A stretch of DNA of 63,799 bases, the filler included, from Folioceros fuciformis (taxonomy: Eukaryota), in assembly GCA_049999805.1 (NCBI GenBank). It is 10 parts of 10 records of this genome, joined end to end, with 100 filler letters (N's around TTAATTAATTAA, not from the genome) between each part and the next. Parts side by side here need not be neighbours in the genome. Positions count along the whole stretch, not along the records: positions 38,838 to 54,362 come from JBNGIO010001350.1; 9 more parts are not named here. One strand, written 5' to 3'. A program made the position numbers and the translations under genes. Below, in pieces: positions 3,970 through 62,644 of this stretch. Within the stretch, counting starts at the first letter, position 1; each line of letters opens with the position of its first letter. The notes below the pieces were generated by a model. The model ran no database searches. It was given only the letters and a program-made list of their open reading frames with translations, and had not been told where the DNA came from.

Positions 3970-4069
3970 NNNNNNNNNNNNNNNNNNNNNNNNNNNNNNN
4001 NNNNNNNNNNNNNTTAATTAATTAANNNNNNNNNNNNNNNNNNNNNNNNNNNNNNNNNNNNNNNNNNNN
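3970..4069. other. Artificial contig-join linker
   Basis: N44-TTAATTAATTAA-N44 (stops in all six frames). Confidence 0.98.
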
Positions 4070-8623: not shown

Positions 8624-8723
8624 NNNNNNNNNNNNNNNNNNNNNNNNNNNNNNNNNNNNNNNNNNNNTTAATTAATTAANNNNNNNNNNNNNNNNNNNNN
8701 NNNNNNNNNNNNNNNNNNNNNNN
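8624..8723. other. Artificial contig-join linker
   Basis: N44-TTAATTAATTAA-N44. Confidence 0.98.
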
Positions 8724-15678: not shown

Positions 15679-15778
15679 NNNNNNNNNNNNNNNNNNNNNN
15701 NNNNNNNNNNNNNNNNNNNNNNTTAATTAATTAANNNNNNNNNNNNNNNNNNNNNNNNNNNNNNNNNNNNNNNNNNNN
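15679..15778. other. Artificial contig-join linker
   Basis: N44-TTAATTAATTAA-N44. Confidence 0.98.
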
Positions 15779-18700: not shown

Positions 18701-20743
18701 TTAATCAGGGGCTGAATCCAGCTCCGTCGACTCAAGATCGTCAACCAGGGCGTATTGCACACAGTCCATGGATTTCAAATCAGGTTTCACTCCCTCCCGC
18801 TGCATACGTTCAAACAGCTTCGCACCTTCTTCAGCAAAACCGTGCTTGAAACAAGCTCCAATCATGGCGGTCCATACTACCACGTTCTTCATGGGTAAAG
18901 CATGGAAGGATTGCCTAGCGTCTTCGATGCTCCCACACTTTGAATACATGTGTACCAGGGCACTCCCCACAAAGACATCCGACGTGAGTCCCTTTCTCAG
19001 GACTTCAGAATGGACTCTCTTGCCCTCCTCCAGAGCTGACGCCTGCGCACAGGCATGGAGTACCCGGGTGAGCACCCTTGTATTCGGCTCTACTCCTTCT
19101 TCCTTCATCCTCCGGTATATCTTTATAGCCTCTTCGGCGCGGCCATAGTGTGAAAAACCGGCAATCACGCCGTACCAGGTTACTGCATTACGGTCGGGCA
19201 TTTTCTCGCAGACCTCCAAAGCCTCGTCCAAGCTTCCGCACTTGGCATACATGTATACAAGGGCATTCCCAATGACTAAATTTGAAAACCCCCTTGCCAC
19301 TATGTACTTATGCACTTCTCTCCCTTCTTCGACGGCTCGGACACTCGCACATGCTTTCAAGATGCAAGCGTAAGCCACATCGTCGGGCTCCTCCTCTGAA
19401 TCAAGCATTCGCTTATAAAATCTGATGGCATCCTCAGCTAGACCTGCCTGTGTGTACCCCACCAGCATGGCAGTCCAAGAGACCACATTTCTGGTGGGCA
19501 TTTTCTCAAACACCTCGAGAGCATCGGCCATGCCCCCACAATTAGCATACATGTCAATCAGAGAGTTGCCCATCGTGACCTCCAGTTCAAAACCACTTGA
19601 GATCACATCCGCATGCACACTTCGTCCTTCTTCAAGTGCAGGTATACTAGCACATGCCTTTAGTACCGAAGTGAAAGTGGACGTGTTTGGCTTCACACCT
19701 GATTGCTGCATCAGTTTGTACAGCTTGATTACTTCCCTCGCCTGACCCACTTGAGCATATCCTACAATTAGGGCTGTCCATGAGACCGTATTTTTCCGCC
19801 GCAGTCCATCAAAAACATGCCTTGCTTGAAAAACATCCCCACTTTTTGCATACATGTCGACAAGCGCAGATCCAACGATGACATCCAGCTCCAATCCAGT
19901 ATCAATGATGTCAGCATGTACTCGTCTACCTTCCTCCAGGGCGTGAACATGGCCGCATGCTTTAAGAACGGAGGAGAAGATCCAGCCATCTGGCTTGACA
20001 TGTGCTTCCCGCAACTTCTTGTAGAATCTGATGGCTTCCCATGGGAGATCAGCTGTGGTGTAAGCCACCAGCATTGCTGTCCAGCACACTACATTCCTAG
20101 TGGGCATTTTCTCAAAAATTCTCCTTGCATCCTCATGGCTCCCCAACTTTGCATACATGTCCAGAACAGCAGTCCCTATAAAGCTGTCTGACTCTAGCCC
20201 ATGCCTTCTGATACATGCATGGACCTTCCTACCCTGCTCCAAGTCTTCTACACTCACACAAGCCTTTAGTAGAAAAGTAAGCACAAATGGAGAAGGCTTC
20301 ACCTTTTCAGCCAGCATCTGCGGAAACAGCTGCAGAGCTTCTTCATTCTTTCCAGCCTCAACGTACCCTCGAATAAGCGCAGTCCATGTGTAACTGTTAC
20401 GGCTCTGAATTCGATCAAATACAGCCTGTGCATCCCCGAGCCTCCCTAGTGCAGCATACATCCTGACAATGTTACCCGCGACGTAGCTTTCGGATTCCAA
20501 CCCACTCCTCATGATATGAGCATGCACCTCTACGCCCTGTCGTAATGCCGTCCTTTCTATGCACGACTGAATGAGAGACTCGTAGGTACGAACATGAACC
20601 CCAATCCCCTGGTCCATCCTAGCGCGTAACCTTTCCAACGCCTCCTCCACCTGTCCCTCCTCGCAAAGCCGAGTCACAACCCTGACGGTCCCAGATGAAG
20701 ATGACAACCAATGAGAGAAGGCAACCAAATTTCGCCACGCCAT
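18701..20743 (-). CDS. PLS-class pentatricopeptide repeat protein, intronless, no E/DYW domain
   Basis: Tandem P-L-S motifs (..GSALVDMYAK.G...AR.VFD...KNTVSWTALI.GYAQ..); first ATG at 20743; ends without an E motif. Confidence 0.92.
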   Translation of the reverse strand: MAWRNLVAFSHWLSSSSGTVRVVTRLCEEGQVEEALERLRARMDQGIGVHVRTYESLIQSCIERTALRQGVEVHAHIMRSGLESESYVAGNIVRMYAALGRLGDAQAVFDRIQSRNSYTWTALIRGYVEAGKNEEALQLFPQMLAEKVKPSPFVLTFLLKACVSVEDLEQGRKVHACIRRHGLESDSFIGTAVLDMYAKLGSHEDARRIFEKMPTRNVVCWTAMLVAYTTADLPWEAIRFYKKLREAHVKPDGWIFSSVLKACGHVHALEEGRRVHADIIDTGLELDVIVGSALVDMYAKSGDVFQARHVFDGLRRKNTVSWTALIVGYAQVGQAREVIKLYKLMQQSGVKPNTSTFTSVLKACASIPALEEGRSVHADVISSGFELEVTMGNSLIDMYANCGGMADALEVFEKMPTRNVVSWTAMLVGYTQAGLAEDAIRFYKRMLDSEEEPDDVAYACILKACASVRAVEEGREVHKYIVARGFSNLVIGNALVYMYAKCGSLDEALEVCEKMPDRNAVTWYGVIAGFSHYGRAEEAIKIYRRMKEEGVEPNTRVLTRVLHACAQASALEEGKRVHSEVLRKGLTSDVFVGSALVHMYSKCGSIEDARQSFHALPMKNVVVWTAMIGACFKHGFAEEGAKLFERMQREGVKPDLKSMDCVQYALVDDLESTELDSAPD

Positions 20744-21480
20744 GTGAAACAGACAATGTTCTATACGGACAGACATGCACACATTGCAACCCAATACCTG
20801 TCGGTCATCTGACCAATTCCTCTGGTTGCAGCGGTTTCAACCCGGGGAGGCCCCGAAAAACTGTAACCCACATCTTTCCTTGGCAAATGAACGGAGGACA
20901 TATTTCCACAGCTCTTCACATCCGATTCCGGGCCTGCCAGCAGCACCAGAGAACGGCAATCAGCTCGTCTGAGAGCATCCCATATTTCTTCTCAGCAGCT
21001 GCACGCACAGGGCAAGGCCGGAAGGGAATAAGAATGAACCAGGACTGGAGATAGCGCTGAACCTCCGAGCAGACCCGATGGCAAACCCTGCTTCTGTCTC
21101 TCGCCCTGAGGTCTGCCTGAGCTATCGCCCTCCCCGACTGGCCCACCCACTTCTCCACTCCCTGTGGAGCGGAAGGAAGATACCAGCACACGAAGGCACC
21201 CATGGCCGGATTTCAGCAAGGCGCTACGTGAGAGAATCCAGCTCCCTCTTCTCCCGGTAGCGCGCATCGGACCATCCAGTGATGTCTGCCTCCTCACAAG
21301 TCTTCACAGTGCCCAAACGAGTCGGATTCGAAGCTACAACGAGTCGCTTCATTAAAATGAGCATTCACTAACACGAAAGAACGCAAGTACTCTACATATC
21401 TATATAGGTGGGATAAACTATGCGTTCCTGGGCGAAGGTCTGTGAAGTGGGTTGCCAAACGCTTGCTGGAGGCTCCTGCG

Positions 21481-23871
21481 ATGGCGGAAAAGAAGACTTG
21501 TTTGTGGAAGATCTGTTTCCCGTCGGAAGCAGTGCCTCTGGACATATTGGCTGCAGCAGCCGTCTCTGACCTTGAACTAGAAGCCTTCTCTAATCTGGTG
21601 CCAGGGTCTGTACCGGTGCTGTCTTTTCCTTCCGGGGAGCAGCTTCAGGGAGCCAGCACTGTGCTGAGGTACATTGCGAGAGTGAGCAAGCTGCCAAATT
21701 TCTATGGTTCGGACGCCCTGTCTGCGTCTCAGGTGGATGAGTGGCTTGAGTACGCTCCGCGGTTCCGAAATGAAGCTGAGTTCGAGCGGGCATGTGAGTT
21801 TGCGGATTTCTATCTTACGTTCAGGACTTTCTTGGTCGGATATGACTTGTCCGTTGCCGATGTCGCTGTCTGGGCCGGCCTGGCTGCCTCGGTGCTGCGT
21901 TGGGAGGCCCTTGCTAAGGCTGGTAGATATCCCAATCTGGTGCGATGGTATAGTGGACTCACTGGTGAGCATCAGGGGTTTAAGGATGTGATGGCAAAGT
22001 ATCGCAGCAAGAGGGCTTTAGGCAAGTCTCTCCCTGATGGAGTATCTGCCAGTAAAAAGTCCAATGTCACGGTGGCTAACAGCCAGAAGAAGGAGCAGGT
22101 GGATGGATCATTTGATGTGGATCTGCCTGAGGCGGAGGTGGGGAAGGTTTGCACCAGATTTCCGCCTGAACCTAGCGGGTATCTGCACATAGGGCATGCC
22201 AAAGCCGCTTTGTTGAATCAGTACTTTGCAAAGAAATATGAGGGCACTTTGATTGTCAGGTTTGACGATACTAATCCGTCTAAGGAAAAGGACGAGTTTG
22301 TTCTCAGCATTCTGGCAGACCTCAAAACCCTGGGGATTGTGGGGGATAAGCTCACGTATACGTCTGACTATTTTCCGCAGTTATTGGAAATGGCCGAAAG
22401 GCTGATCCGGGAAGGGAAGGCGTATGTGGATGACACTCCTAGAGATGAGATGAAAGAGCAGAGAATGGTGGGGACTGAATCAAAATGCCGCAACAACAGT
22501 GTGGAAGAGAACCTGAATCTGTGGAAAGAGATGGTGGGTGGCACGGACAAGGGCAGGGAATGTTGTCTGCGAGGGAAGCTTGACATGCAGGCGGCTAACA
22601 AGACCCTTCGGGACCCTGTGTACTACCGATGCAATCCAACCCCTCACCACAGAGTCGGTGACAAGTACAAGGTGTATCCAACGTATGATTTTGCTTGTCC
22701 TTTTGTGGACAGCTACGAAGGCGTAACACATGCTCTTCGAAGCAGTGAGTATCACGATAGAAATGACCAGTACTATCGGATTTTAGCCGACATGGGGATG
22801 AGGAAAGTTCATGTTTGGGATTTCAGTCGTTTGAACTTTGTTTACACGTTGCTGAGCAAACGCAAGCTCCAGATGTTCGTGGATAGCGGACGAGTACAGG
22901 GCTGGGATGATCCTCGTTTCCCAACTGTACAGGGTATCCGCAGAAGGGGTCTGACCGTGGAAGCTCTGACACAGTTCATTCTGTCTCAGGTAGTTAGTAT
23001 GTTAAGCTACACGCATCGTTGCGTGCAATGATGTTGCACAAGTTTTTTAACTGTCCAATGTGGCTACTGTTTGTTCCCAGGGTGCTTCCAAAAATCTCAA
23101 CCTCATGGAATGGGACAAGCTTTGGACTATCAACAAGAAGATAATTGATCCTATTTGTCCAAGACATACTGCAGTTTATAGTGAAGGAAAGGTTCTTCTC
23201 GTCTTGAACAATGGCCCTGATGTGCCCTTTGTTCGGGTTATACCTCGCCACAAGAAGTTTGCAGGTGCTGGAATGAAGGCCACTACCTTCAGTAAGGCGA
23301 TATGGCTGGACCTGGAGGATGCAACTCAAGTGCAGCAAGGAGAGGAAGTTACCCTCATGGATTGGGGAAACGTTATAATTCAATCCGTGCAGAAGGATGC
23401 TATGGGAAAAGTCACGGGTCTCAAGGGAGTACTACATCTTGAAGGTTCGGTGAAGACCACAAAGCTAAAGCTTACATGGCTACCAGATACTCCTGAACTT
23501 GTTTCTCTGTCACTAGTGGAATTGGATTATCTGATCACAAAGAAAAAAGTAAGTCCTGTTCTCTCTCAACTTCATTTCGATCTCAGATTGTGCAGAATGG
23601 TTTTCATTGTGGTTGCGTGTTCCAGCTGGAGGAGACAGATCTACTGGACAATTTCCTGAATCCTCGCACTTGGTGGGAAGTCCCAGCAATCGGTGACTCG
23701 AATATGAGGAATTTGAAGAAAGGAGAAATTCTACAACTAGAAAGGAAGGGCTACTTCGTTTGTGATGTGCCATTTATCCGGCCCTCGAGGCCTATCACAT
23801 TGATATCCATTCCTGATGGAAGGCAAAAGCCAGCATCAGCTTCAGTAGCGCAGGTACGACCAGGTCAGTAA
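21481..23871 (+). CDS. Cytosolic glutamyl-tRNA synthetase (exons 21481-22989, 23081-23548, 23626-23871)
   Basis: N-terminal GST-like domain, TRFPPEPSGYLHIGHAKA (HIGH), LSKRKL, GWDDPRFPT, and anticodon domain LQLERKGYF. Confidence 0.96.
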
Positions 23872-24530: not shown

Positions 24531-24630
24531 NNNNNNNNNNNNNNNNNNNNNNNNNNNNNNNNNNNNNNNNNNNNTTAATTAATTAANNNNNNNNNNNNNN
24601 NNNNNNNNNNNNNNNNNNNNNNNNNNNNNN
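24531..24630. other. Artificial contig-join linker
   Basis: N44-TTAATTAATTAA-N44. Confidence 0.98.
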
Positions 24631-33472: not shown

Positions 33473-33572
33473 NNNNNNNNNNNNNNNNNNNNNNNNNNNN
33501 NNNNNNNNNNNNNNNNTTAATTAATTAANNNNNNNNNNNNNNNNNNNNNNNNNNNNNNNNNNNNNNNNNNNN
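33473..33572. other. Artificial contig-join linker
   Basis: N44-TTAATTAATTAA-N44. Confidence 0.98.
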
Positions 33573-34020: not shown

Positions 34021-36521
34021 ACATCAAGCTTGAGTAAGGCGTATTGGGCAGAGGCAGTTGTGACTGCCACCTACATACTCAATAGGTTGCTTACCACAGC
34101 TGTTCCTGATTGTATACTTTTGAACGGATCTGGAAACGCAAGCCCAACTTGCTCCACCTCCGTGTGTTCGGCTCCCTTGCATATGCCTATATCCATGAGG
34201 AACAGAGGAAGAAGCTGGAAGATCGAGCTCGACCCCTTATTTTTGTTGGATATGGTGAGGAGACAAAGGCCTACAAGTTGTATGACCCCTCCACTAGATC
34301 CTCAATCTTTGCTCGGAGTGTCACTTTCCAGGAGCTCACTCAACCAGCTACGACATCTTCTCCTGCTTCTGCCCCTGCTCCTCACTTTGATGATGCGGAT
34401 TTTGATGCCCCTCCCACAGAGTATCCGCAATACCCTGCTTACGAACTGCCACCTCGCCCTCGTTTTGATCAACAGGCAGCTAGTAGTTCAGGGGGTGGAA
34501 TTTCTGCATATGTGCAGGTTCTCGTACAAGCACTTGCACCACCAACTCCTGCACCCACAGCTACAGTTGGTCGTGACCCTATTGTGGATTTTCCTGAGCA
34601 GCAGGATGCAGAACTTGAGCAGGATGCTGATCCAGAATTTGACACACAACATGTGGACATCCATCCTGATGCTCCTAACCAGCTAGAAGATGAACCTGAG
34701 CTAGCAGTCCTTCCAGAGTCTAAGATACAACCAATTGAGAAGACACTTCTTGAACCTGCAGTCGAGGAACGGAGGTATCCTACAAGGTCTCGTCCAACAC
34801 GAGACAGCTAGAACACAAGACCATATGAACCAGAGGATTTTCGTCTTCCTCGATCTACAAGGCTATGTGAAGCCTTCTCTACAAGGACTGCTCATCCAGC
34901 AGAACCTCGCACATACAGAGAAGCTATCACTGGTCAAGATAAGGCTCATTGGATAGCATCCATTCGAGATGAGTACGACTCACTAATGAAGAATGAAACA
35001 TGGGAGCTTTGCCCCCTACCTGCTAGAAGGAGAACCGTAAGCTGCAAGTGGGTTTTCAAACACAAACTCAACGCCAAAGGTGAAATAGCACGTTATAAAT
35101 CACGACTTGTTGCTCGTGGATTTTCTCAAGTAGCAGGTGTTGATTTTAATGAAACTTTTAGCCTGGTTGTGAAGACTCAATCCGGAAGCTGTTAGCCTTA
35201 GCTGCAGCTAGGGATTGGGATCTGGAACAAATGGATGTCTCCACAACTTTCCTCTGTGGTGATTTGGAGGAAGATATCTATATGGATCAGCCCGAGGGCT
35301 TCGTGAATCCTGAGCACCCAGATTGGGTATGTAAGCTTAAGAAGACCTTGTACGGGCTCAAACAGAGTGCTCGTGAGTGGTATAAACGCATAGACAAGTA
35401 TCTTTGCTCTTTAGGCTTCCTGCAGAACCCAGCAGATTCTAATGTGTACGTCTACACCAAGGGTGGTAATATAGTTGTTTTAGCTCTTTATGTAGATGAT
35501 GCCATTTTGGCGTCAAATAATCGAGAGCTGTTAGATTGGGCTAAGGGCATGCTTCATAAACAATATGATATGAAAGATATTGGCCCTCTCACTTTTGTTC
35601 TAGGCGTATCTTAGGAACAGGGAAACACGTACTTTGGTTCTTCATCAAACCAAGTATATTGAAGAGACACTTTGACATTTTAATCTTCAGTATGCTAAAC
35701 CAGTTAGTACTCCCGGATGTGTTGGTGTTAATTTTTCCACTCTTCAGTATCCTCAGGATAATTATGATCAAGAAGCCATGAGCCAGATTCCTTATCGGCA
35801 TGCTGTGGGCTGCCTCAGCTATATCAGTTGCTGGACACGACCTGACATCCAGCATTCTGTGAGTGTAGTCTCACAATATCTTGAGAATTTTGGCCAAGAA
35901 CACTGGATAGCCGTTAAACGGATTTTAAGATATCTAAAAGGGACTTCTACTTTTGGACTCTTTTTTCAAGGGCAAGACAATGACCTCACCTTGGCGGGAT
36001 ATGCTGATGCGGATTGGGCAACTGACCCAGATCAACGTAAAAGCATCTCTGCATATTGCTTCCCTCTATCTGGTGCAGCTGTCAATTGGAGTTCGAAGAA
36101 GCAGACATCTATCGCTCTTTTATCCACCAAGGCAGAATATAAGGCCCTTATGGATTCAGCCAAGTAGGCCAAATGGGAGCAAACTTTCCTTGCTGGTTTG
36201 AATTTTCCACAGGCTATTCCTACAACCATTTTCTGTGACAACATGTCAACTATAGCGTTGGTAGGGAATCCTCAGTTTCACGCGCGCACCAAACACATAG
36301 AATTGCACCATCATTTTGTTCGACATTCTGTGGAGCGCAAGGTGATCAAGATCGAGTATATATCAACAGAGCTAAACATAGCTGATATGCTTACAAAGAG
36401 CTTACCGACAAACAAGCATGTCTTCCACATGGAGGCAATGGGCCTGGTAGAGTATTCTTCTTTAGGCAAAGACTCCTCTATGGTCAAAAAGATTCTAATA
36501 GAGGGCACTCTGTTACTATAG
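34021..36521 (+). mobile_element. Degenerate Ty1/copia pol (end of integrase, RT, RNase H)
   Basis: YWAEAVVTATYILNR, LRVFGSLAY, FVGY, KWVFKHK..YKSRLVARGFSQ, LYGLKQ, YVDD, YADADWA, RTKHIE, ADMLTK; several frameshifts and stops. Confidence 0.95.
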
Positions 36522-38737: not shown

Positions 38738-38837
38738 NNNNNNNNNNNNNNNNNNNNNNNNNNNNNNNNNNNNNNNNNNNNTTAATTAATTAANNNNNNN
38801 NNNNNNNNNNNNNNNNNNNNNNNNNNNNNNNNNNNNN
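38738..38837. other. Artificial contig-join linker
   Basis: N44-TTAATTAATTAA-N44. Confidence 0.98.
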
Positions 38838-41800
38838 TACATAGGGCTGCACTACCCGGCCACGGACGTGCCCCAGGCGTCCAGGTTCCTCTTCATGAAG
38901 GAGCGCGTGCGGATGATCGCCGACTGCTTCTCCACCCCGGTGCGGGTGGTGCAGTCCCGGGAGCTGCATCAGCCCATCAGTCTAGCCGGGTCCAGCCTGC
39001 GCTCCCCGCACGCCTGCCACGCCCAGTACATGGCCAACATGGGGTCCGTGGCGTCGCTGGCCCTGGCGGTGGTGACTCACGACGTGGACGAGGAGCTGAG
39101 CGGCAGCCGAAGGTTGTGGGGGCTGGTGGTGTGCCACCACAGCACTCCGCGCACCCTCCCCTTCCCGCTCCGCAAGGCCTGCGAGGCCCTGGCGCAGGCC
39201 TTCGCGGCGCAGCTGAACCGCGAGATGGAGTACGCAGAGCAGATGCGGCAGGAGCGGATACAAAGGAACGAGGGTCTGCTCTGCGACATGCTGCTGCGGG
39301 AGCTCCCGGTGGGAGTGGTGGTGCAGGCGCCGACGGTGATGGATCTGGTGGATTGCTCCGGTGCCGCGCTGTACTACGAGAAGCGGATTTGGATGCTCGG
39401 GATCACGCCGACCGAGGCGCAGATCCGGGATATAGCCGCATGGCTGCTGCGGCAGGACAAGGATGTAGTGGATTTCGCATCCGACTCTCTCACGGAGTCT
39501 GGCTATCCCGGGGCAGCCGCACTCGGGGACGCCGTGGCCGGGATGGCCGCCGCCAGGATCTCCCCGGCCGGCTCCTTCGTCTTCTGGTTCCGGTTGCAGG
39601 AGATCCGGAAGCGGAGCTGGGCCGGGGCGCAGCAGAGCGCGGAGGAAGGCGACGATGGGAACAGGCCGCACCCGCGCTCTTCCTTCCTGGCGTTCGCGGA
39701 GTACATCAAGGGGCGGAGTTCGCAGTGGGAGGAAGTGGACCGGGACGCCATCCATTCCTTGCAGCTCATCTTGCAGCGGGAGGAGGAGGCCAATCAAGAA
39801 GGCAGTGGGAGCTCAGGCGTGAAGTCGAGTTCGTCCATGTTGATGACGGGGCGCGGAATGTCAATGCCCCTGCCCCTTCCTGGCGGTGGCGGGCCCGGGG
39901 GTAATGGCCCGTCGATGTCCTTGCCCTGCACTTTGGCGCGTGAGTGGATGGAGGCGATGAGGAGCTCGGAGGGGAGCGATGGCGTGAGCGGGATGAGCCG
40001 GGATGTGAAAAGCGCGCTAGGGTCGTTCCCGCACGCGTTCCTGGTGTGCGACGCCAGGAAGCCGGATAACCCCATCATCTTCGCCAGCGCGGGGTTCTTC
40101 GCGATGACGGGGTACGGGACGAAGGAGGTGCTGGGAGCCAACCCTCGCTTCCTGCAGGGCCCGGATACGGACCCGGGGCAGGTGGACGAGATTCGGGCAG
40201 CGTTGGAGGATGGCAGAAGCTTCTGCGGCAGGATTCTCAACTACAAGAAGGACGGGTCCACCTTCTGGAACCTGCTCACCATCACGTTGGTGCAGGACGA
40301 CGCCGGGACGACGACGCATTACGTGGGGATGCAGGCCGAGGTGAGCAAGCACACGGAGGGGGCGATGGCGGACGCGGTGCGGCCCAGGGGCCTCCCGCAG
40401 TCACTCATCCGGTACGATGCGCGGCAGGAGGAGAAGGCCAAGGGGCTGGTGGGGGATCTGGTGGCGGCCGTGGCACGGCCCAGGCAGGTGTTGGATCAGC
40501 CGTGCCCGCTGCTGGACCCCGAATTCGTGTCCATGTCGACTCTGTCGCTGGCGCCATCGCCGAGGATCAAGTCGCTGGTGCCAGGGTTGATGGGGAGCGG
40601 GAACGACAACAGCAGTGGGGTGGCGAGCGGTTCCGTTACCTCCGAGCAGGAAAGGAAGCCGCTGCTGCTGGAGAATGTGGCGGCGGCGGTGGCGGCCGCT
40701 GCGCAGGCTCACGAGGCCGTCTACCCTGAGCTGGAGGTGGTGATGGTGGAGGACGATGGGAGGGTTGAGCGCGCCAGGTTGCCGGAGCGGACGCGGCGGG
40801 GAGTGGATCTGGCCACCACGCTGGAGCGCATCGACGACAGTTTCGTCATCACAGACCCCCGGCTGGATGACAACCCCATCATCTTCGCCTCCGACCGCTT
40901 CTTGGATTTGACGGAGTACAGCCGGGAGGAGGTCCTGGGCCGGAACTGCCGGTTTTTGCAAGGCCCGGCCACGGACTCAGGAAGCGTGAAGAAGATCCGG
41001 GACGCGGTGCGAGACGGGCGGGAACTGTCCCTGGAAATTGTGAACTACACCAAGGGCGGGCGGGCGTTCTGGAACCTGTTCCACCTACAGACCATGCGCG
41101 ACCCGGACAGCGGGGCGATACAGTACTTCATCGGCGTGCAGCAGAAGTTGGCGGACTATGTTCCCGGCCAGAACAAGGATTTGTCTGCCCCCTTGGCGAA
41201 AAAGAAGATTTCCACCCCGAAGGCCGTCGACTCACAGCAGCAGGGGCAAGTCCAAGGGGGAGTAGGAGTAGGAGGAGGAGGAGGAGGAGGAGGAGGAGCA
41301 GGAGCAGCACATTTGCTGGTGACAAGCAATAAGACTACGGCCAAGACTGTGGACAAGGCGACGCGGCAGCTGCCGGACGCGGACCAGACCCCGGACGCGC
41401 TGTGGGTGGCGCACTCGGGGCCCGTGACTGCGCGGCCGCACAAGCTTAACAGCGCGCAGTGGCACGCCATCGCGAGGGTACAGCGGCGGGGGCGTGGGCA
41501 GGGACTGGGGCTAGAGGACTTCCGGCCGCTCAGGCCGCTGGGCTCCGGGGACACGGGGTCCGTGTACCTAGTAGAGCTGCGGGGAACGGGTCATGTGTTC
41601 GCCATGAAGGCCATGGACAAGGACGCCATGGTGCGGCGCAACAAGGTGCACCGGGCGCGCGCGGAGCGCAGCATCCTGGCTATGGTGGACCACCCCTTCC
41701 TGCCCACGCTCTACGCCAGCTTCCAGACGCGCACACACGTGTGCCTCATCACGGACTTCTGCCCGGGCGGGGAGCTGTTTCTGCTCCAGGAGGAGCAGCC

Positions 41801-42620
41801 GCGCAAGATTTTCAGCGAAGACGCGGCCCGATTCTACGCTGCTGAGGTGGTGATCGCCCTGGAGTATCTGCACTATATGGGCGTCATCTACAGGGACCTC
41901 AAGCCAGAGAACGTGCTGCTCCAAGAGAATGGCCACATTCTGCTCACCGACTTCGACCTCTCCTTCCTCACCTCCTCGCGGCCGCAGCTCCTACGGAGCC
42001 AGAGCCATGTCGGCCCGATGCGGCGACGCAGGCGCCGGCGCGAGCTGCAGCCGCCTGTCTTCTGCGCGCAGCCCAGCGCCGCCTCCAACTCCTTCGTCGG
42101 CACCGAGGAGTACATCGCGCCGGAGGTGATCAACGGGGACGGCCACACCAGCGCCGTCGACTGGTGGGCGCTCGGCATCCTGCTCTACGAGATGCTCTAT
42201 GGCCGCACTCCCTTCCGCGGCCGGAACCGTCACCTCACCTTCGTCAACGTGCTGCAGCAGGAGCTCACCTTTCCTGCCAGCATTCCCGTCTCGCTACCGG
42301 CGCGTCAGCTCATCCGCGGGCTGCTGCACCGGGACCCTGCGCGTCGCCTGGGGACCTTCCGCGGCGCCAACGACATCAAGCAGCACCCCTTCTTTCAGGG
42401 CTTCAACTGGCCTCTCATCCGGTGCAGAAATCCGCCGTCTCTCCAGGTCCCCGTCACCTCCAATCAGGACGCCCATTCCCATTCCCATTCCCCTGCCCCT
42501 GCACATCACGAAGATGTCGACGCCGACGACACGTTCGTCCTGGGTTGGGACAAGATTGCCCAAGGATCCCAGACCCCGCCGCCTGCTAGTTCTGCCCAGA
42601 CCTTCAGTGATGTCTTTTGA
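38838..42620 (+). CDS. NEO: Neochrome (phytochrome GAF-PHY fused to phototropin LOV1-LOV2-AGC kinase), intronless, 5'-partial
   Basis: [19 protein letters not shown], bilin Cys in PHACHAQY (39015), [17 protein letters not shown]1 [11 protein letters not shown]2 [27 protein letters not shown] and [14 protein letters not shown], all in one frame. Confidence 0.96.
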
Positions 42621-43125
42621 GATTCCGTCCACCTTTGTCTTATCGTCACGCTCGGTAGAACACACCCGGCAACACCGGGTCTTCAACTGAAGCCCATCAT
42701 TTGTCAACTGCACAGACAAAAATCGTCTGGGAATGCGTACCGTTTGGAATGTAAAGCTTCCATGAATTGTATCCTGGCCTCACTGGGATGCGCAACTGTA
42801 GCAAACGGAACAGAGGCACGTAGTGCGTGGCGCGCATGCAGCCAGCCCATGCCGAGGGAATACAGTAGTCGGAAAAACTGTGATAGATCAACAAAGCTAC
42901 TGTACGCTGGTTGTTAACATTGCTCTCGATATGTGTACCAACAGCATCGTCCAAGGGAGTGACGCACTACTAGAGATCACCAAATCAGGAGCGTACAAGA
43001 ATAACGTCCGCCCCAATGCGACGCCTTCGGCGGCGGTGGTCGAAATAACGAAAATGCTCGTCACTCCCGCGAACATCCCAGTAGCCGCGTCTCTCGTGGT
43101 GAAAGAGACATGTATGTATGGCACC

Positions 43126-46100
43126 TCACTCATCCCTGAGCTCCACAACATCGCCAGGCGAGAACACAGCCTCCAGAGCCTTGGCTGCACTTGTCACCCT
43201 TGTAGCGCTCTGCAAAACCACATACCAGCATGGGATCAATCAAAGACTGGGGAGCGGTTGGAAACAGCTCTTGACCCATGAAGGGAGAAAAAGCACGTTA
43301 TGCACCTTGCCGATAATACTCAACACAAGCCTTCCCACGTTCCAATTGCCCTTCACTGCTTCCGAGCGAGCCGATTCCCTGTAGCAGCCTGCACACCGGT
43401 TCCCAACATGAGATTAAATGCTTGCTCAAGCACACAGGCTTGCTCATACGCTGCTGTACTCCAGCGCAGCATAGCAGTCACCGACCTATTGTGAGGTCTG
43501 GATACTCTGAGTCCAGTTGGGATAATGGTCCTGCAATCTCAACCTGCTCCAACGCGAAAGTGCCCATCACACCATGAAGGTCTTAGCGTCCTTCCTTTGC
43601 CTCCCAACGCCTAGAGCGATGGTTATAGGTAGGTCGACCCACACCCCTTGTCCCTGTTCCTTCCTTTCAACGAACAGGGCTTCGGGCACACAGCAGCACA
43701 AACTTTCAAACAAAACCTCACCTCAGGAACCGCAGTGCAGAGCCTAATGGATGCAAATGGACCTTGAATGCGAAACAAATCTCTCTCGCTACTCAGCTCC
43801 AGCAAGCATCTCCACTGGACCTCCACCTCCGCTCTCGTTGCCGCTGGAAGCACATACACATTCCGGCACTTGATCTGCACACCTACAAGTTAGAGAACTG
43901 CTTTGTCAAAGCCTGCTTGGTCAAAGCATGTCAGGCTTACCACTGGAACTGGTAGATCTTTGTGCGGCAGAAGCTCTGTGATGCCCTCTGGTAACTTCGC
44001 CATCTGCAAAGGGAAGATATAATGGATGGGAACTACGAACTACGGATTGTAGGGACTTCACTTGCAGAGGTTGCTTGTTTGAGAGAACTACTGTTAAACA
44101 GTGGTGTTCAAAGCTCGTCAAACAATCAGACCTTATTTTGATCACCAGAGCAATGTTCGCCGATCTGTTGACGAAGGTCCTCTTCGAACTCTTCATCTGT
44201 GGCCTGCTTGTCAAAGCATGTCAGGTCTGGACCATATGCCTGTGCTTGGGCTATGTTTCCCGAAAACAAATTTCAGTTTGCCCCAGAAGACAACTGCCAC
44301 CCAACATACCAGGCGAACGCCAAAGGCCTTCGCAACACCTGCCAAAGTAACATCGCTGTGAAGAGGACCAACGCCGCCTGCAATCAATACCTGCAGCCAA
44401 GTCAAGTTAGAAAACTTATGCAGAACGGCACAAACACACATATGGCGAAGCCGAGATACTTTACAAGGTCGTTTGTGGCTGATCTCTGCTCAACTTCCTC
44501 GGAAATTGCGTCAATCTGCACTTGTAGCCACCGAGTAACTTGCACTGTTCAACATATAGTAGCACTGGAAGCCAGTATGGTGTCTATCACAAGGTCAGAT
44601 ACTCTACAATGCCTGCATGAATGTTAAGTGTCCACCTATATCCAGATAGACGAAAGGAAGGGGTGTTACCGTACATCATTTGGCAGAATGGCTCGACGAG
44701 CAATGGCCCAGCCAATCAAGTGAAGCTCCTGGCTCAGATAAGTGCCCACGAGATCCTCGACTTCCCCTCGTCTGCAGGAGACCCCAGATCAGAAGACTTG
44801 ACACAAATGCCAGTCACGTAATTGTCAGAGCAGAACAGCTTGTCAGGTTACAAATTATGGTATCTCTAGTGCCTTTACTTGTCAGGTTGCACACTATCGT
44901 CTCCCTAGTGCCATGTAAGATGAGTGAATCCCATTGACCCAGACAAAAGACATCGCCAAGCTTACAGTATTTCATCGCCCACGACTAGGATCGATGCAGC
45001 ATACAGAGTGTTGCCTCTGGCAACTGATAAGTCACCATTATCTGTTGCGTCTACTGTTGAGTGACACTTAGAAGAGGGTTTCTTTGTTCTCCCTGCTCTT
45101 TCAAGTCTGCCATCCCGAAGAAGATAAGCAGGCCGATAGATTGCAGATCCAGGTGCATCTCCCATCTCCACCTGCCCATCCAATCTGGAGATGAGCAGAG
45201 CTCCATTTGGTGATGTGTCGTGCACACTACCAATGGATGTGTACCTAGAAAAAGAACAGACTACAGTGAGCAAAGTTAGTCACAAAGTACTACTTCCTGT
45301 TCAGCAGTTTAGTAATACCTGCAACAAGCATCAACAGATGGCAAACTTCCAGTCTCACCCTTGGTCATACAGCTTGCAGTATGGGACCTTGCAGGCCAGC
45401 AGAAACGCCCATACGTCCCTGAGTAGTCCATAAACCACGTACAATCAGCTTGGGTGAGACAAATGTGGGATATGCCTGGTTTTAGTTCCATTTATCATCA
45501 TACTAGTAGCCGATTCCACACACCAAACCACTGACCTGTAAGACCAATCGAGAATGGGGTTGACTCGCATGAAAGGCGGCCAGCCTGCAGAGCTAGGTGA
45601 GAACTTTTCTTGCCCTACCTGAATAACAGAAGGCAACATGTCAAAAAATCACCTCAGGCACTAGGTGACGTGAACAATGTGTGGCCTAGCAGAAAGTACT
45701 AGAATCGAAAAGGAAAGTCAGAACCGGACATGAATGTGACGGAACATACCGCATTGGGATCCCCAATCCGAGTACCAAGAAAAATGGCCATAATTGGCCT
45801 GTCCCGGCGTAATTCTTCAATCCCAGACTTAAAATCAAGACTAATCTCTTTAAGCTCTAGGTTATACCTGTCACATGCCAGCACGTACTCAATCAGCCAC
45901 ACGGCAGCTCTAACCCCTCCCAGAATCGTAGTCTGAACAATGGAACTCACCTTTTGGCAGTTTCTAACGTGAAAGCATCAATTTCCGGAAATGCATTCGG
46001 ACTTCTGAAATAAATTGTCGTGATAGAATGCGGGGTAGCTGAGGAAGGGCTCTTAGGATCGGCAGATTCCGAACACGATCTCGAAGCACCTGCCGCGAAA

Positions 46101-46594
46101 CCCGCTCGCAGGAGGTGCAGGAGAACCTGTACCAAGGACAGGCATTGTAATCCGCAACCAGTAACTCTTTCGTCAAACTCGAAACGACGATGGCCCCTCA
46201 TTCATATCCCAATTCTTATCCTGGGAACTCACAGTGGAATCTTTGCCACCGTTGAAACTGAAAGCCACCTCTTCAAACCTGTAGGAAGCAGGCGTTAAGC
46301 TCCTAGAATGGACAGGCTCGAAGCAATGACAGCCTCAGAATCCACGCAGGACGCCGGACAGTGAGATGCTTGACGTATCACTTCCTGAAGAAAATCGAAT
46401 AGACAAGATCCAAGCACCCGAGACCATGCACGAAGCCAGGGTAGCAAGAACACAAACAAGGACGCAACATCGATGCAATGTGAAAACACTCGCCTGTAAA
46501 GTGCAAGCGTCCGATCCACCACATTGAGCGAATGCTTGAACTTGGCCTGCAACCTCCTGTCCCCGCTTTCCGCCACCGCAGACATGATCTCCAT
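43126..46594 (-). CDS. FAD synthase (PAPS-reductase-type FMN adenylyltransferase plus C-terminal molybdopterin-binding/CinA-like domain), multi-exon
   Basis: [80 protein letters not shown]. Confidence 0.93.
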
Positions 46595-46876
46595 GGCTGC
46601 TTGTGACTGAAGCTAGCGCGCTTCACAGTCGCTCGACACTCCAGCAAATTAGCGACTATCCACCGGACTCCATTCCGCGCTTGTGGTACTAACTTCACGC
46701 AACATCCAGACTCCGGTTTCTAAAAAAGGAGGACATGGCATGAATCACGTATCAGGATTTTCGGTTTAGTAAAAGTAGTATTATCGATTTGGCTAGCCGT
46801 GTCAACCACCAGCATGCATCACAGTGGCGCTTGCCAGACACAAGCCTCCTTTGTTTCCTTCGTTTGAGTAACGTTT

Positions 46877-49486
46877 TCAAGAAACGATAGAACAAGGTCT
46901 CAAGGTGCGTCTTTCACGAGGAGTATGGGGTTTGTCGTTGAGGGAAGGTGACATAGTCAGCTGCTCGCTGTGCCCATGCAAACCATCTTGCTTTATATCA
47001 ACGAAGAAATCTGTCGGTGAAAAGTCTACATATTCTTCCGCCTTCAATGTGGAGAAGAAGTGTTTCAGCCTGGTTTGACACTTGGGATGTTTTTCATCCT
47101 CAGCCAGGAAACTGTGCACCAGTCCAGCCATGTCTGTCCACCAGCTCTGAGCTGGTTGCTTCCATGCCCTGATGCTTGCCCTCCTCGATCTTATTTCGCC
47201 TGCCTGATCCCACATCTCTGCACCCCTGTATATGTTGGACATCAGGACATAAGCTGCAGCATCTCTCCTGTCTAGCTGCAGTGCTTGGTCGAACGCATGG
47301 CATCCCACTTCGACGTTGCTCCACTTTCTACAAGCACCCAGCAGAGTGTGCCAGACAGCAGCATTGGGCAGGACAGGCATTGTTCTTGTCACAGATAATG
47401 CCTCCTTGAGTAGGCCTGCACGGCCCAGGAGATCCACCATGCATGTGTAGTGCTCTACTGTGGGTGAGATTCCGTAGTGTCTACTCATAGCCTGGAAGTA
47501 CTGGCTCCCCTTGTCCACTAGAATTGCGTGGCTGCAGACCGTTAGTATGCTGAGGAAAGTGACGCTGTCTGGCTGAATGCCCTCCTCTGTCATTCTCTGC
47601 ACCAGGTCGAAGACCACTTCACTGTCTCCCTGGCAGGAGTAGCCTGCAATCAGTGCACTCCAGGCAACAATGCCTCGTTCAGGCAATTCGTCAAACACCT
47701 GTCGTGCATCGACCATGCTCCCAGATTTTCCGTACATGTTTACTAGACTGCTGGCTACAAAAACATCAGCTTGAAGCCCTCGCTCTTCAATCTGTGCATG
47801 CAGCTGCCTTCCCAGATGCAAAGCTGCCACATTTGCACATGCCTGAAGGAGGCAGACAAATGTCACAGCATCAGGTACAGTAACGCCCTCCTGTTCCATG
47901 GCTACGTAAAGTCGAAGGGCCTCCTGTCCCATGCCCTGCTGAGAGTAACCTGCTATCATGGCATTCCACGTCACAACGTTCTTCTGATCCAGTCCATCAA
48001 ACACCCTCTGAGCATCTTCCAAGCTGCCACACTTCGCATACATATTCACCAGACCGTTGGCTAGAACGACATCAGCTTGATGTCCTTGTTCTCGAATATG
48101 CTGGTCAAGCTGCTTCCCCACCTCCAAAGCCGACGTGCCCACACTTGCACATGCCTGCAGGAGGCATGCGAATGTGGGGCAATTGGGTGCAACCAAGCCT
48201 TCTTTCTGCATAGCACGATAGAGACGAAGGGCTTCATGGCCCATGCTCTGCTTGATATACCCTACCATCAGAGCATTCCATGTCACCACATCTTTCCGAC
48301 CAAGGCCCTCAAACACTCCCTGAGCGTCCTCCAAGCTTCCACACTTTGCAAACATGTTCACCAAACTGTTGGCCACAAACACGTCATCTTGATAGCCTCG
48401 CTCTCTGATCTGAGCATGAAGCTGCTTCCCCATCTCCAAAGCTGGAGTGCCCACACTTGCACATGCCTGTAGGAGGCAAACAAATGTAACCGAATTGGGC
48501 ACAGCGACGCCTTCTGCTTCCATATCCCTGAAGAGTCGAAGAGCTTCCTCCCCATTGCCCTGCTGGGAATATCCTGATATTAGAGCAGTCCACGTGACCA
48601 CATTCTTTTGGCCAAGTGCGTCAAACACTCTTCGGGCGTCTTGTAAGCTGCCACACTTTGCATACATGTCCACCAAGCAACTAGAGACAAACATATTCGG
48701 CTCAACGCCAGAAGCTAGCACATCAGCATGTAGCTCCAGCCCAGTCTTCAAGTCTTGCCCCCTTGCACAAGCCTGAAGGGCTGCCACAAATACATGGCCA
48801 TCTGGCTTCACACTGGATTTCCGCATCCGATTATACAAATGGAGGGCTTGCCTGTCTTGTCCGTGTTTAACATGCGCAAAAATTATGGAAGACCAAATGA
48901 AGGCATCTGGTTTTGCAACGGCTTCGAACACATTCACCGCATCTTGCAGCCTGCCATGGGAGGCATACATTCGCAGAATGTAATTGCACAGGAACGTATC
49001 TGACTCGTAACCCATCTTTGCCGCGAAAGCATGGACTCGGCGACCTTGGACAACATCCTTCTTCACCGTACACTCCTTCAGCACAGCATAAAGGAGGGGC
49101 CTGGAGACACAACAGTCTGTCTCCACCAGCACTCCCAATGCGTTTACAGCCTCACAGAGATGGCCTTGATGACATAACTTGATCACTGTCCCAGCCGATA
49201 CACTCCTTTCGTACCCTGCTTGCCTGCGACAACAGACCTTCTTATCCAGCGCATCAAGCTCTTGGTCGATGCAGGTTCTGTCCACAGCCCGACATACCAT
49301 TCGCCTACCTGGGTTTCTAGCAAAGGGGCTGCACCTCCGAGGTTCGTTGTCTGCCGAGTCCTGGTTTCTTGAAGTTACATGTCCGGATGCTATCAGCCCA
49401 CTACTTTGCTGGGTCCACGAGGACGGTACCCACAACAGCTCCAGTTGCCCTTTGACTGACTCAATTGCGACGCTCCACACAGCCAT
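46877..49486 (-). CDS. PLS-E class PPR protein with truncated WW-type DYW domain, intronless
   Basis: PLS triplets; EHYTCMVDLLGRAG and E motifs (AAYVLMSNIY); KQPAQSWWTD; HSE present, then a stop before CxxC/DYW. Confidence 0.92.
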   Translation of the reverse strand: MAVWSVAIESVKGQLELLWVPSSWTQQSSGLIASGHVTSRNQDSADNEPRRCSPFARNPGRRMVCRAVDRTCIDQELDALDKKVCCRRQAGYERSVSAGTVIKLCHQGHLCEAVNALGVLVETDCCVSRPLLYAVLKECTVKKDVVQGRRVHAFAAKMGYESDTFLCNYILRMYASHGRLQDAVNVFEAVAKPDAFIWSSIIFAHVKHGQDRQALHLYNRMRKSSVKPDGHVFVAALQACARGQDLKTGLELHADVLASGVEPNMFVSSCLVDMYAKCGSLQDARRVFDALGQKNVVTWTALISGYSQQGNGEEALRLFRDMEAEGVAVPNSVTFVCLLQACASVGTPALEMGKQLHAQIRERGYQDDVFVANSLVNMFAKCGSLEDAQGVFEGLGRKDVVTWNALMVGYIKQSMGHEALRLYRAMQKEGLVAPNCPTFACLLQACASVGTSALEVGKQLDQHIREQGHQADVVLANGLVNMYAKCGSLEDAQRVFDGLDQKNVVTWNAMIAGYSQQGMGQEALRLYVAMEQEGVTVPDAVTFVCLLQACANVAALHLGRQLHAQIEERGLQADVFVASSLVNMYGKSGSMVDARQVFDELPERGIVAWSALIAGYSCQGDSEVVFDLVQRMTEEGIQPDSVTFLSILTVCSHAILVDKGSQYFQAMSRHYGISPTVEHYTCMVDLLGRAGLLKEALSVTRTMPVLPNAAVWHTLLGACRKWSNVEVGCHAFDQALQLDRRDAAAYVLMSNIYRGAEMWDQAGEIRSRRASIRAWKQPAQSWWTDMAGLVHSFLAEDEKHPKCQTRLKHFFSTLKAEEYVDFSPTDFFVDIKQDGLHGHSEQLTMSPSLNDKPHTPRERRTLRPCSIVS

Positions 49487-49880
49487 GGTTCTCGACAGCC
49501 GGCAGCTCACATCTACGCGAGTACCGCTCTAGTTTCCATGGATTAATTCTCATGCTGTAAGATGAAGGCCCTCGCGGAGGAAGCATAGCGATGGTAGGAC
49601 TCCCGGTCTCACGACTCCAACGGCTATGGCAGAGGCTGGCCCCCGCCCAGGGGCCAGGACGAGATGAAAACGAGGTATCGGGATGAAATCCGATCTGGAG
49701 GAAGCACCATATTGATGGAACATCCATCCTCAACTCCAATGAGGAGAAAGGAGCATTCTCTTAAATAGAGAATTTTTGACATGCAGAGGTCTCCATGATG
49801 CGGACTTTGAGATGAAGTCTGATCAGCTTAGATGGAACTGACTGGAACACGAAGGTGCAACGTGAGCTTCGGAAGTCATT

Positions 49881-54362
<4,482 letters not shown>

Positions 54363-54462
54363 NNNNNNNNNNNNNNNNNNNNNNNNNNNNNNNNNNNNNN
54401 NNNNNNTTAATTAATTAANNNNNNNNNNNNNNNNNNNNNNNNNNNNNNNNNNNNNNNNNNNN
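54363..54462. other. Artificial contig-join linker
   Basis: N44-TTAATTAATTAA-N44. Confidence 0.98.
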
Positions 54463-58223: not shown

Positions 58224-58323
58224 NNNNNNNNNNNNNNNNNNNNNNNNNNNNNNNNNNNNNNNNNNNNTTAATTAATTAANNNNNNNNNNNNNNNNNNNNN
58301 NNNNNNNNNNNNNNNNNNNNNNN
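58224..58323. other. Artificial contig-join linker
   Basis: N44-TTAATTAATTAA-N44. Confidence 0.98.
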
Positions 58324-62544: not shown

Positions 62545-62644
62545 NNNNNNNNNNNNNNNNNNNNNNNNNNNNNNNNNNNNNNNNNNNNTTAATTAATTAA
62601 NNNNNNNNNNNNNNNNNNNNNNNNNNNNNNNNNNNNNNNNNNNN
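62545..62644. other. Artificial contig-join linker
   Basis: N44-TTAATTAATTAA-N44. Confidence 0.98.

Follow-up and report, generated by a model that had tools for sequence, protein, structure and literature searches.

The LOV1 domain of a neochrome gene from the hornwort Folioceros fuciformis carries a proline where the photoactive cysteine is expected, which raises the question of whether the substitution is genuine and, if so, what such a domain contributes to the receptor. The gene lies in a stretch of 63,799 nucleotides from assembly GCA_049999805.1, here called the window, in which contigs have been placed end to end with nine artificial joins. Positions 38838-54362 form the contig that carries the neochrome. 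On a separate contig, the open reading frames at 35676-36521 have a copia-like appearance and give no Pfam match at E 1e-5.

Domain organization of the neochrome gene

The join at 38738-38837, which has no strand and consists of 44 N, TTAATTAATTAA and another 44 N, removes the 5' end of the gene. The remaining reading frame is on the plus strand, as are all the features described below, and extends from 38838 to 42620. It contains 1260 codons, has no intron within the part present and terminates at a stop (TGA/TAA) at 42618-42620. A tblastn search of the window with the homologous protein P0002 returns a single segment, in which residues 218-1350 are aligned to 38838-42248. The integrity of the gene can be asserted for the part present, because the first ~217 codons, as judged from this alignment, lie outside the window.

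Pfam finds the order GAF (part)-PHY-LOV1-LOV2-Ser/Thr kinase in this single reading frame. Judged by that order, the gene is a neochrome of the hornwort/fern type, in agreement with the original prediction. The GAF domain is represented by its C-terminal part (38838-39227, residues 1-130; PF01590, E 9.7e-10). The PAS domain and the start of GAF are missing because the contig ends there, and P0002 has both (PF08446 is listed). Cys60 of GAF, encoded at 39015-39017, is nearly invariant in an alignment of 18 sequences and is presumably the bilin-attachment residue. The PHY domain follows at 39264-39776 (residues 143-313; PF00360, E 1.2e-42).

The LOV1 core occupies 40023-40337 (residues 396-500) and is recognized by the Pfam PAS_3/PAS families and by LOV1 entries of the PDB, with E values of 8e-40. 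The LOV2 core, at 40818-41141 (residues 661-768), has the canonical motif GRNCRFLQ, in which Cys704 is encoded by TGC at 40947-40949. The Ser/Thr protein kinase domain, of the phototropin AGC type (41529-42395, residues 898-1186; PF00069, E 1.1e-61), has its catalytic-loop and activation-segment motifs, including GTEEYIAPE, as read in translation. LOV2, the linker region in which a J-alpha helix would be expected, and the kinase are all canonical.

The adduct position of LOV1

The LOV1 motif GANPRFLQ is encoded at 40134-40157 by GGA GCC AAC CCT CGC TTC CTG CAG. The codon of Pro436, CCT at 40143-40145, is in the frame of the long reading frame, and the LOV2 counterpart reads GGC CGG AAC TGC CGG TTT TTG CAA. 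A phmmer search aligns LOV1 without gaps to the LOV1 domains of Arabidopsis phot2 (2z6d; E 7.3e-42, full length) and phot1 (2z6c; E 2.6e-39), and the alignment to LOV1 of Chlamydomonas phot (1n9l) is gapless as well. In all three, Pro436 falls exactly on the adduct-forming cysteine. The reading of the sequence and the alignments to LOV1 domains of solved structure thus bear out the earlier claim that proline has replaced the photoactive cysteine in LOV1, and that LOV2 has kept its own at 40947.

Since Pro436 occupies the place of the adduct-forming cysteine, LOV1 is not classed as a canonical photoactive LOV domain. It lacks the thiol for an FMN C4a adduct, and the canonical LOV photocycle is therefore impossible in this domain. 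LOV2 has both the adduct-forming cysteine and the GRNCRFLQ motif.

The PAS/LOV fold of LOV1 is indicated by sequence, through the match to 2z6d. An AlphaFold2 model built on a 23-row alignment has low confidence, with a mean pLDDT of 66.7 and values below 50 for model residues 45-52, which lead to the proline. The low pLDDT near the proline may reflect the depth of the alignment rather than disorder. When this low-confidence model is used as a Foldseek query, the best matches are LOV1 domains, with TM scores of 0.55-0.62.

Authenticity of the substitution

It is very improbable that the proline stems from an error of sequencing or assembly, or that this copy of the gene is a dead pseudogene. 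In favour of such a reading are the shortness of the contig, which lacks the 5' end of the gene, the assembly itself, which is built of small contigs strung together, and the only reads that support the site, which are possibly not independent. They form the X1 contig, from one public run, which covers 39911-40232 at a word depth of 9.2 and has no differences to the window; it is not counted as independent, because the run may derive from the very sample that was assembled. The reads of two further public runs leave the LOV1 proline site uncovered, and run X3, which is RNA by guess only, spans 39400-39521 and 40607-41246, outside LOV1.

Against an error or a dead copy stand the perfect agreement of X1 at a depth of 9, the open frame of 1260 codons with intact kinase motifs, and the two base changes that would be required. 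CCT differs from both TGT and TGC at two positions, as had been stated earlier in arguing that a single-base error is unlikely. That argument is strengthened by P0002, an independent homologue 88% identical to the window protein, which also reads GANPRFLQ; because of it, Pro436 is judged not to be a sequencing error. Restoration of the cysteine by RNA editing is not expected. Hornwort RNA editing is organellar, and C-to-U changes in CCT produce Ser, Leu or Phe codons, none of them Cys.

Distribution of the proline variant

The survey set comprised 127 phototropin and neochrome proteins, in 126 of which two LOV motifs were found. The adduct site of LOV1 is cysteine in 124 of these and proline in two, the window protein and P0002; that of LOV2 is cysteine in 126/126. 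The alignment of LOV1 across neochromes, suggested earlier as a check, has the cysteine in every other hornwort and fern neochrome (15/15, with NCRFLQ in both LOV domains). It is kept too in the algal Cylindrocystis neochrome P0029, where LOV1 has GSCRILEG and the LOV2 cysteine is absent.

Proline at the adduct site (NPR) was found in 4 of 211 LOV-type motifs from 149 representative proteins. A phototropin-like kinase of 702 amino acids, P0409, has the order LOV-LOV-Pkinase and reads GHNPRIIQG in LOV1, with proline as in the window. However, its LOV2 motif is degenerate too (QSPLFIM) and its identity to the query LOV1 region is 40%; its proline probably arose independently. Two near-length protein searches for further members of the lineage returned P0002 only, and among shorter proteins all 74 matches were at most 63% identical to the query. 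No close DNA relative of P0002 was present among the 80 retained of 205 metagenome relatives, for which the best segment identities were 41-73%. What is said here of the lineage thus concerns a variant carried by two sequences only.

The window protein and P0002 form a group (SH-aLRT 100) in a quick tree built from the phototropin module. All other hornwort and fern neochromes are its sister group (SH-aLRT 95), and this whole set of neochromes is nested among hornwort phototropins (SH-aLRT 100). The PHY-module quick tree places the pair in the same way, with a support of 83. Both modules thus appear to group with hornwort and fern neochromes, with moderate tree support, because these are quick trees and the stem branch of the pair is long (0.78-0.8).

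The known members of that group, NEO1/phy3 of Adiantum capillus-veneris and the neochromes of Nothoceros, Megaceros and Paraphymatoceros, have the same PHY-LOV1-LOV2-kinase fusion as the window protein, with LOV2 and kinase likewise canonical. Their overall identity to it is, however, only about 56-59%, and their LOV1 has Cys, Thr400 and Val404 where the window protein has Pro, Ala and Cys. The neochromes of the zygnematalean algae Mougeotia and Cylindrocystis, the phototropin module of which has an independent origin according to PMC4525182, have likewise lost the adduct cysteine from one LOV domain. PMC4532919, where this loss is already published, assigns it to the switch domain LOV2 and describes it as extending to many flavin contacts, whereas the window protein lacks the cysteine of LOV1 and retains the contacts.

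The flavin pocket

Seven of seven polar flavin contacts (N435, R437, Q440, R453, N468, N478 and Q499) are intact in the window protein and in P0002, and five positions of LOV1 are matched to a published account. Those five, namely the adduct position and the positions at +17, +32, +42 and +63 from it, correspond to Cys57, Arg74, Asn89, Asn99 and Gln120, which PMC11364019 names around FMN. The motifs NYKKDG..FWN and GMQ are also present, as the original prediction had noted. Natural LOV domains without the cysteine, including ones with proline, do exist as had been claimed. They are the LOV* domains of Yee et al. 2015 (PMC4682037), defined there as having all strictly conserved LOV residues but the adduct cysteine; LOV1 of the window conforms to this definition over a partial list of those residues.

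Two further changes accompany the proline in both sequences. Residue 400 is alanine (GCG, 40035-40037), where 122/124 other sequences have threonine, and is aligned to Thr21 of Chlamydomonas LOV1, the hydrogen-bond partner of the active-site Gln120 (PMC11364019). Residue 404 is cysteine (TGC, 40047-40049), which is present in 0/124 other sequences; the position is valine in 15/16 other neochromes and serine in 107/108 phototropins. It corresponds to T418 of AsLOV2, C76 of VVD and T30 of YtvA, and lines the flavin pocket (PMC3867380, PMC4161478).

These residues bear on whether LOV1 has been rewired as a cysteine-independent sensor that reports blue light, redox state or both beside the bilin module, a reading that we regard as unlikely. 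It is favoured by the preserved flavin contacts and glutamine, and by Cys404, which occupies one of the positions around the isoalloxazine ring and is unique to the two proline-bearing sequences. According to PMC4682037, LOV proteins without the cysteine can signal through the semiquinone, the natural proline-bearing BAT-LOV reacts to reduction, and a neighbouring cysteine increases the yield of photoreduction. An intact glutamine relay is argued against, however, because Thr400, the partner of the glutamine, is replaced by Ala in both the window protein and P0002. Moreover, the position of residue 404 (that of T418 and T30) is presumably near the dimethylbenzene edge of the flavin and not near C4a or N5. 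In its specific form, with proline at the adduct site, Cys404 as electron donor, Gln499 retained and semiquinone signalling from LOV1 next to the bilin module, the proposal is equally improbable, although some redox or semiquinone role of LOV1 is possible. The three roles originally suggested for LOV1, as a silent or structural domain, a redox-type sensor or a photosensitiser, are alike at the level of sequence.

Constraint on LOV1

Within LOV1, the window protein and P0002 differ at 3/60 family-conserved and at 11/45 variable sites (Fisher p 0.007), and the same avoidance of conserved sites is found in LOV2 and the kinase. The identity of the pair is 86.7% in LOV1 and 89.8% in LOV2 as against 71-83% in the linkers. 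LOV1 thus looks constrained since the two sequences separated, because the seven polar flavin contacts are kept and the differences within the pair fall at variable sites. The changes shared by the pair, in contrast, affect 8/50 family-conserved sites in LOV1 and 3/142 in the kinase (p 0.001), because of which some relaxation of LOV1 on the stem is possible. Compared with LOV2, where 6/68 such sites are altered, the difference is not significant (p 0.26).

The altered stem sites would suit a decaying relic without cofactor, which lost its cysteine under relaxed selection and was kept as a mere spacer. So would the low confidence of the LOV1 model around the motif and the dispensability of LOV1 in PHOT1 (PMC3539441). 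This reading is nevertheless unlikely, as a relic would hardly be expected to keep all seven polar flavin contacts in both sequences, to avoid changes at conserved sites after the split, and to be more conserved between the two than every linker. The algal neochrome LOV2 without its cysteine, unlike LOV1 here, has lost many of its flavin contacts too (PMC4532919).

Role of LOV1 in the receptor

We consider it fairly likely that the Cys-to-Pro change is real and inherited, that LOV1 is a folded and probably flavin-binding domain unable to form the adduct, and that blue-light gating operates via LOV2. The change would date from the long stem branch leading to an early-diverging neochrome lineage, of which the window protein and one other sequence are the representatives. 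LOV1 would persist in a structural or modulatory role, for example in dimerization or tuning, while blue light would act through LOV2 to gate the kinase and red/far-red light would enter through the bilin-binding GAF-PHY module. The exchange of Thr400 for Ala removes the threonine that pairs with the active-site glutamine, and fits a light-signal relay that was abandoned with the pocket retained.

A single-residue change that inactivates LOV1 leaves Arabidopsis PHOT1, like the window protein, with a LOV1 incapable of the adduct, and this mutant receptor works through LOV2. Phototropism, chloroplast accumulation and leaf positioning are intact in it, and LOV2 is essential (PMC3539441). The PHOT1 mutant is engineered, whereas the change in the window is natural, is fixed in at least two diverged sequences and is accompanied by further changes in the pocket. 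The PHOT1 result and the sequence fit the earlier claim of a canonical blue-light input that depends on LOV2, and the switching by blue light has probably been left to this second LOV module.

The halobacterial BAT-LOV, a natural LOV* domain, has proline at the adduct position and keeps the active-site glutamine and other conserved residues, as does LOV1 of the window. It binds flavin, of which the expressed domain contained only modest amounts (PMC4682037). However, natural LOV* domains such as BAT-LOV belong to archaeal and bacterial multi-domain regulators, whereas that of the window is the LOV1 of a land-plant phototropin-type kinase, next to a canonical LOV2.

Implications

No published report of proline in a hornwort neochrome LOV1 was found in the literature searched, although Figure 5 of PMC4532919 may show it. 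The function of hornwort neochromes is still described as unknown in PMC10030945 and PMC4532919. The practical weight of the finding is modest, because the engineered phototropin 1 with a dead LOV1 works normally in the assays tested.

The window lineage is nevertheless a natural experiment, in which a neochrome has a LOV1 incapable of the adduct with its flavin pocket kept, and offers a naturally cysteine-less plant LOV scaffold. It could reveal a role of LOV1 beyond photochemistry. It could also reveal whether plants use cysteine-independent LOV signalling of the semiquinone or redox kind, which has so far been shown for engineered proteins and one archaeal domain. A LOV1 that did prove to be a rewired sensor would be the first LOV domain of the semiquinone type to occur naturally in a land-plant receptor of the phototropin family.

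Gene and contig setting

The neochrome reading frame occupies 38838-42620 (+) and continues for 1260 unbroken codons before a stop. From N- to C-terminus, Pfam recognizes the C-terminal portion of GAF, then PHY (E 1.2e-42), two successive PAS/LOV domains (LOV1 and LOV2) and a protein kinase domain (E 1.1e-61). This is the order of a neochrome, in which a phytochrome sensory module and a phototropin are joined in one protein. The GAF cysteine, presumably the bilin-attachment residue, is present, as judged from an 18-row alignment.

The frame begins immediately 3' of a linker consisting of 44 N, TTAATTAATTAA and 44 N. Nine copies of this linker, whose TTAATTAATTAA puts a stop codon in every frame, lie in the window (3970-4069, 8624-8723, 15679-15778, 24531-24630, 33473-33572, 38738-38837, 54363-54462, 58224-58323 and 62545-62644). 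Ten small contigs have thus been strung together to make the window, which is not one natural stretch, and gene neighborhoods spanning the linkers are artificial. The neochrome contig extends from 38838 to 54362, with the gene truncated at its start; the DNA 5' of 38738 belongs to a different contig and is uninformative about the gene. Only residues 218-1350 of P0002, a partial database protein of 1350 residues, are matched by the window in a tblastn comparison, and thus about 217 N-terminal codons are missing.

An intron-free ORF of 883 aa with PPR repeats and an E motif (46877-49528, -) shares the neochrome contig, and a second intron-free PPR-repeat ORF (711 aa; 18701-20836, -) lies on another. 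PPR genes that lack introns and have an E motif, on this contig and a neighboring one, would be in keeping with a hornwort source. Further ORFs match the class I Glu/Gln-tRNA synthetase catalytic domain (21361-23031, +), a SAGA-Tad1 subunit (6465-8144, -) and the glycosyl hydrolase family 81 C-terminal domain (15731-16612, +, beginning right at a contig join). By eye, ORFs at 35676-36521 (+) resemble the C-terminal end of a polyprotein of Ty1/copia type; Pfam has no match for them at E 1e-5, and their contig is not that of the neochrome. Within the neochrome, a GGA/GGAGGA run (41260-41300) encodes poly-Gly between LOV2 and the kinase; P0002 lacks the run at this place, and sequencing reads are cut at the repeat 41247-41313 around it. 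In both the window protein and P0002, LOV2 (40818-41141) has T731S, V732L, Q733E and L734I, changes at four neighboring residues that are highly conserved elsewhere and lie just before a conserved NY, and likewise P677D and E690D.

Phylogenetic placement

With the LOV1-to-kinase part as query, P0002 is followed in score by phototropins and neochromes of hornworts. A quick maximum-likelihood tree of the phototropin module, computed from 36 rows and 795 columns with SH-aLRT as the sole support measure, unites the window protein and P0002 (support 100); their stem is 0.78 changes per site long. The remaining hornwort and fern neochromes are together sister to this pair (support 95), and the neochrome group including the pair is nested among hornwort phototropins (support 100). 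A quick GAF-PHY tree (21 rows) also joins the pair at 100, with a stem of 0.8, and places it with other neochromes at 83. These placements, from quick trees with a long stem, assign the window gene to an early-branching, fast-evolving lineage of hornwort-type neochromes. The remark in a passage of PMC4525182 that the Anthoceros neochrome is difficult to place in the phytochrome-module tree fits such a lineage.

Proline at the LOV1 adduct position

The LOV1 motif GANPRFLQ is encoded at 40134-40157 by GGA GCC AAC CCT CGC TTC CTG CAG, and the LOV2 motif GRNCRFLQ by GGC CGG AAC TGC CGG TTT TTG CAA, whose TGC (40947-40949) is the Cys codon. Among all solved structures, the top phmmer match is Arabidopsis phot2 LOV1 (2z6d, E 7.3e-42); Arabidopsis phot1 LOV1 (2z6c, E 2.6e-39) is also among the best. 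Both alignments are gapless and full-length, with NPRFLQG opposite NCRFLQG, and an alignment without gaps to Chlamydomonas phot LOV1 (1n9l) equates Pro436, numbered from the first codon present, with Cys57. The original prediction had read the same codons and had placed proline at the photoactive-cysteine position of LOV1 while LOV2 keeps its cysteine; it is borne out on each point. Having no thiol at the adduct position, LOV1 cannot form the C4a adduct, as is evident from the sequence.

P0002, the sole close relative from the database search, is 88% identical to the window protein, both over the query region in the search and, in the 18-row alignment, over the entire protein, and has GANPRFLQ in LOV1 and GRNCRFLQ in LOV2. 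Since 14 of 105 residues differ between the two LOV1 cores, P0002 is distinct from the window rather than a duplicate of it. The proline common to this diverged homologue argues independently for the variant. In the 18-row alignment, each of the remaining neochromes from hornworts and ferns (15 sequences) has NCRFLQ in both LOV domains; the algal Cylindrocystis neochrome keeps the LOV1 cysteine and lacks that of LOV2. A wider survey covered 127 neochromes and phototropins, with two LOV motifs recovered in 126: the LOV1 site is Cys in 124 and Pro in 2, and the LOV2 site is Cys in all 126.

A contig from the public sequencing run X1 covers 39911-40232 at a word depth of 9.2 with 0 differences from the window, in agreement with CCT, although X1 is possibly the assembly's own sample; the other runs compared, X2 and X3, have no coverage of the site. 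That the proline is an error, or the gene a pseudogene, is highly improbable, because the reading frame is open and P0002 carries the same residue. A single-base error had been considered unlikely at the outset, and read error is now ruled out, as P0002 also has proline and CCT is two bases from any Cys codon.

In a survey of the 149 representative proteins closest in sequence to the window's LOV1, 211 motif matches comprise 198 Cys, 4 Pro, 3 Ala and 6 others, making proline the commonest non-Cys residue (4/13). The library proteins P0345, P0376 and P0391 are large multi-PAS proteins with GAF, each with a single Pro-bearing LOV-type motif (GRNPRFLQG or GRNPRLLQG); their remaining PAS domains have Cys or are of other kinds, and P0391 additionally has a histidine-kinase ATPase domain. 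P0409 is a 702-aa phototropin-like kinase whose LOV1 reads GHNPRIIQG, with proline in place of the adduct cysteine, and whose LOV2 motif is degenerate (QSPLFIM); from its sequence it appears to be a second case of proline in a phototropin-family LOV1.

The LOV1 pocket

All polar flavin contacts are retained in LOV1 of the pair: the motif Asn, Arg and Gln, Arg +17, Asn +32, Asn +42 and the active-site Gln +63. The other LOV1 pocket motifs, NYKKDG..FWN and GMQ, are present as well, as the original prediction had noted. The offsets of Chlamydomonas Cys57, Arg74, Asn89, Asn99 and Gln120, which surround FMN according to a passage of PMC11364019, agree with the neochrome LOV1 positions.

Two further pocket positions are altered. 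Ala400 corresponds to Chlamydomonas Thr21 in the gapless map to 1n9l, and Thr occupies this position in 122 of 124 other sequences. Cys404 occurs only in the window protein and P0002, with Val in 15/16 other neochromes and Ser in 107/108 phototropins; it corresponds to AsLOV2 Thr418, VVD Cys76 and YtvA Thr30. We take position 404 to lie near the flavin dimethylbenzene edge, too distant from C4a for an adduct. As judged from the alignments, the pair lineage has lost the adduct cysteine and the threonine partner of the glutamine and has gained a pocket-wall cysteine. In the literature, Thr21 of dark-state Chlamydomonas LOV1 is hydrogen bonded to the active-site Gln120 and is discussed as belonging to the signal path (PMC11364019), AsLOV2 Thr418 is among the residues surrounding the isoalloxazine ring (PMC3867380), and mutations at VVD Cys76 and YtvA Thr30 alter the UVA spectrum and the kinetics of the photocycle (PMC4161478).

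It is unlikely that LOV1 is a cysteine-independent sensor, in which Cys404 could serve as electron donor. Such a sensor has precedents: PMC4682037 describes about 70 LOV-like entries from nature in which Ala, His or Pro replaces the cysteine, the ability of LOV proteins without the cysteine to signal through photoreduction to the neutral semiquinone, and an archaeal BAT-LOV with proline that binds flavin and responds to reduction. The loss of Thr400 argues against an intact relay.

Among positions at least 97% conserved in the 124 other sequences, changes common to the pair number 8/50 in LOV1 (Q399H, T400A, C436P, L466I, P484L/A, I485V, K494H and I496V), 6/68 in LOV2 and 3/142 in the kinase. 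LOV1 carries significantly more changes than the kinase (p 0.001), and its excess over LOV2 is not significant (p 0.26). Differences between the window protein and P0002 fall at 3/60 conserved and 11/45 variable sites in LOV1 (Fisher p 0.007), 1/75 and 10/32 in LOV2, and 1/159 and 7/81 in the kinase. Their identity in LOV1, 86.7%, is higher than in every linker (71-83%) and slightly lower than in LOV2 (89.8%). At the protein level, at which the comparison was made, this pattern points to change on the stem and conservation since the pair split, not free decay; no DNA encoding P0002 was found. The conservation pattern and the intact flavin contacts both make it doubtful that LOV1 is a relic without cofactor. 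The LOV1 structure model (23-row alignment) has a mean pLDDT of 66.7, with residues 45-52, up to the proline, below 50; the nearest folds found by Foldseek with this low-confidence model are LOV1 domains (2z6d, E 8.2e-11, TM 0.55/0.62).

Functional implications

Kinase control in phototropins is exerted via LOV2, and LOV2 of the neochrome is canonical. Kanegae and colleagues (2006) reportedly obtained a result with a fern neochrome similar to that of inactivating LOV1 in PHOT1. In Arabidopsis PHOT1 with inactivated LOV1, phototropism, chloroplast accumulation and leaf positioning are intact and LOV2 is essential, according to the abstract of PMC3539441. Because LOV2 is canonical and PHOT1 works with an inactive LOV1, we favor a LOV1 that would still fold and probably bind flavin, in a role either structural or modulatory. 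Blue light would then act by way of LOV2, and red/far-red light by way of the bilin module. The parts of the original prediction that stand are the missing adduct and the input through LOV2, which fits the canonical LOV2 and the PHOT1 data. Arabidopsis phot1 LOV1 is described in part of PMC4401697 as a dimer in the crystal and in solution, and by analogy dimerization is a plausible retained role.

The section text of Li et al. 2015 (PMC4532919) reports algal neochromes without the LOV2 cysteine and does not mention a hornwort LOV1 proline. A full-text literature search found no description of it, although the LOV1/LOV2 alignment in Figure 5 of that paper might show it. In reviews, the function of hornwort neochrome is called unknown (passage of PMC10030945). 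Carried by two sequences, the window protein and P0002, the proline is of moderate interest, since LOV1 photochemistry is known to be dispensable in phot1. It goes beyond an ordinary substitution in that the pocket is kept, T400A and Cys404 occur with it, and its consequences are testable.
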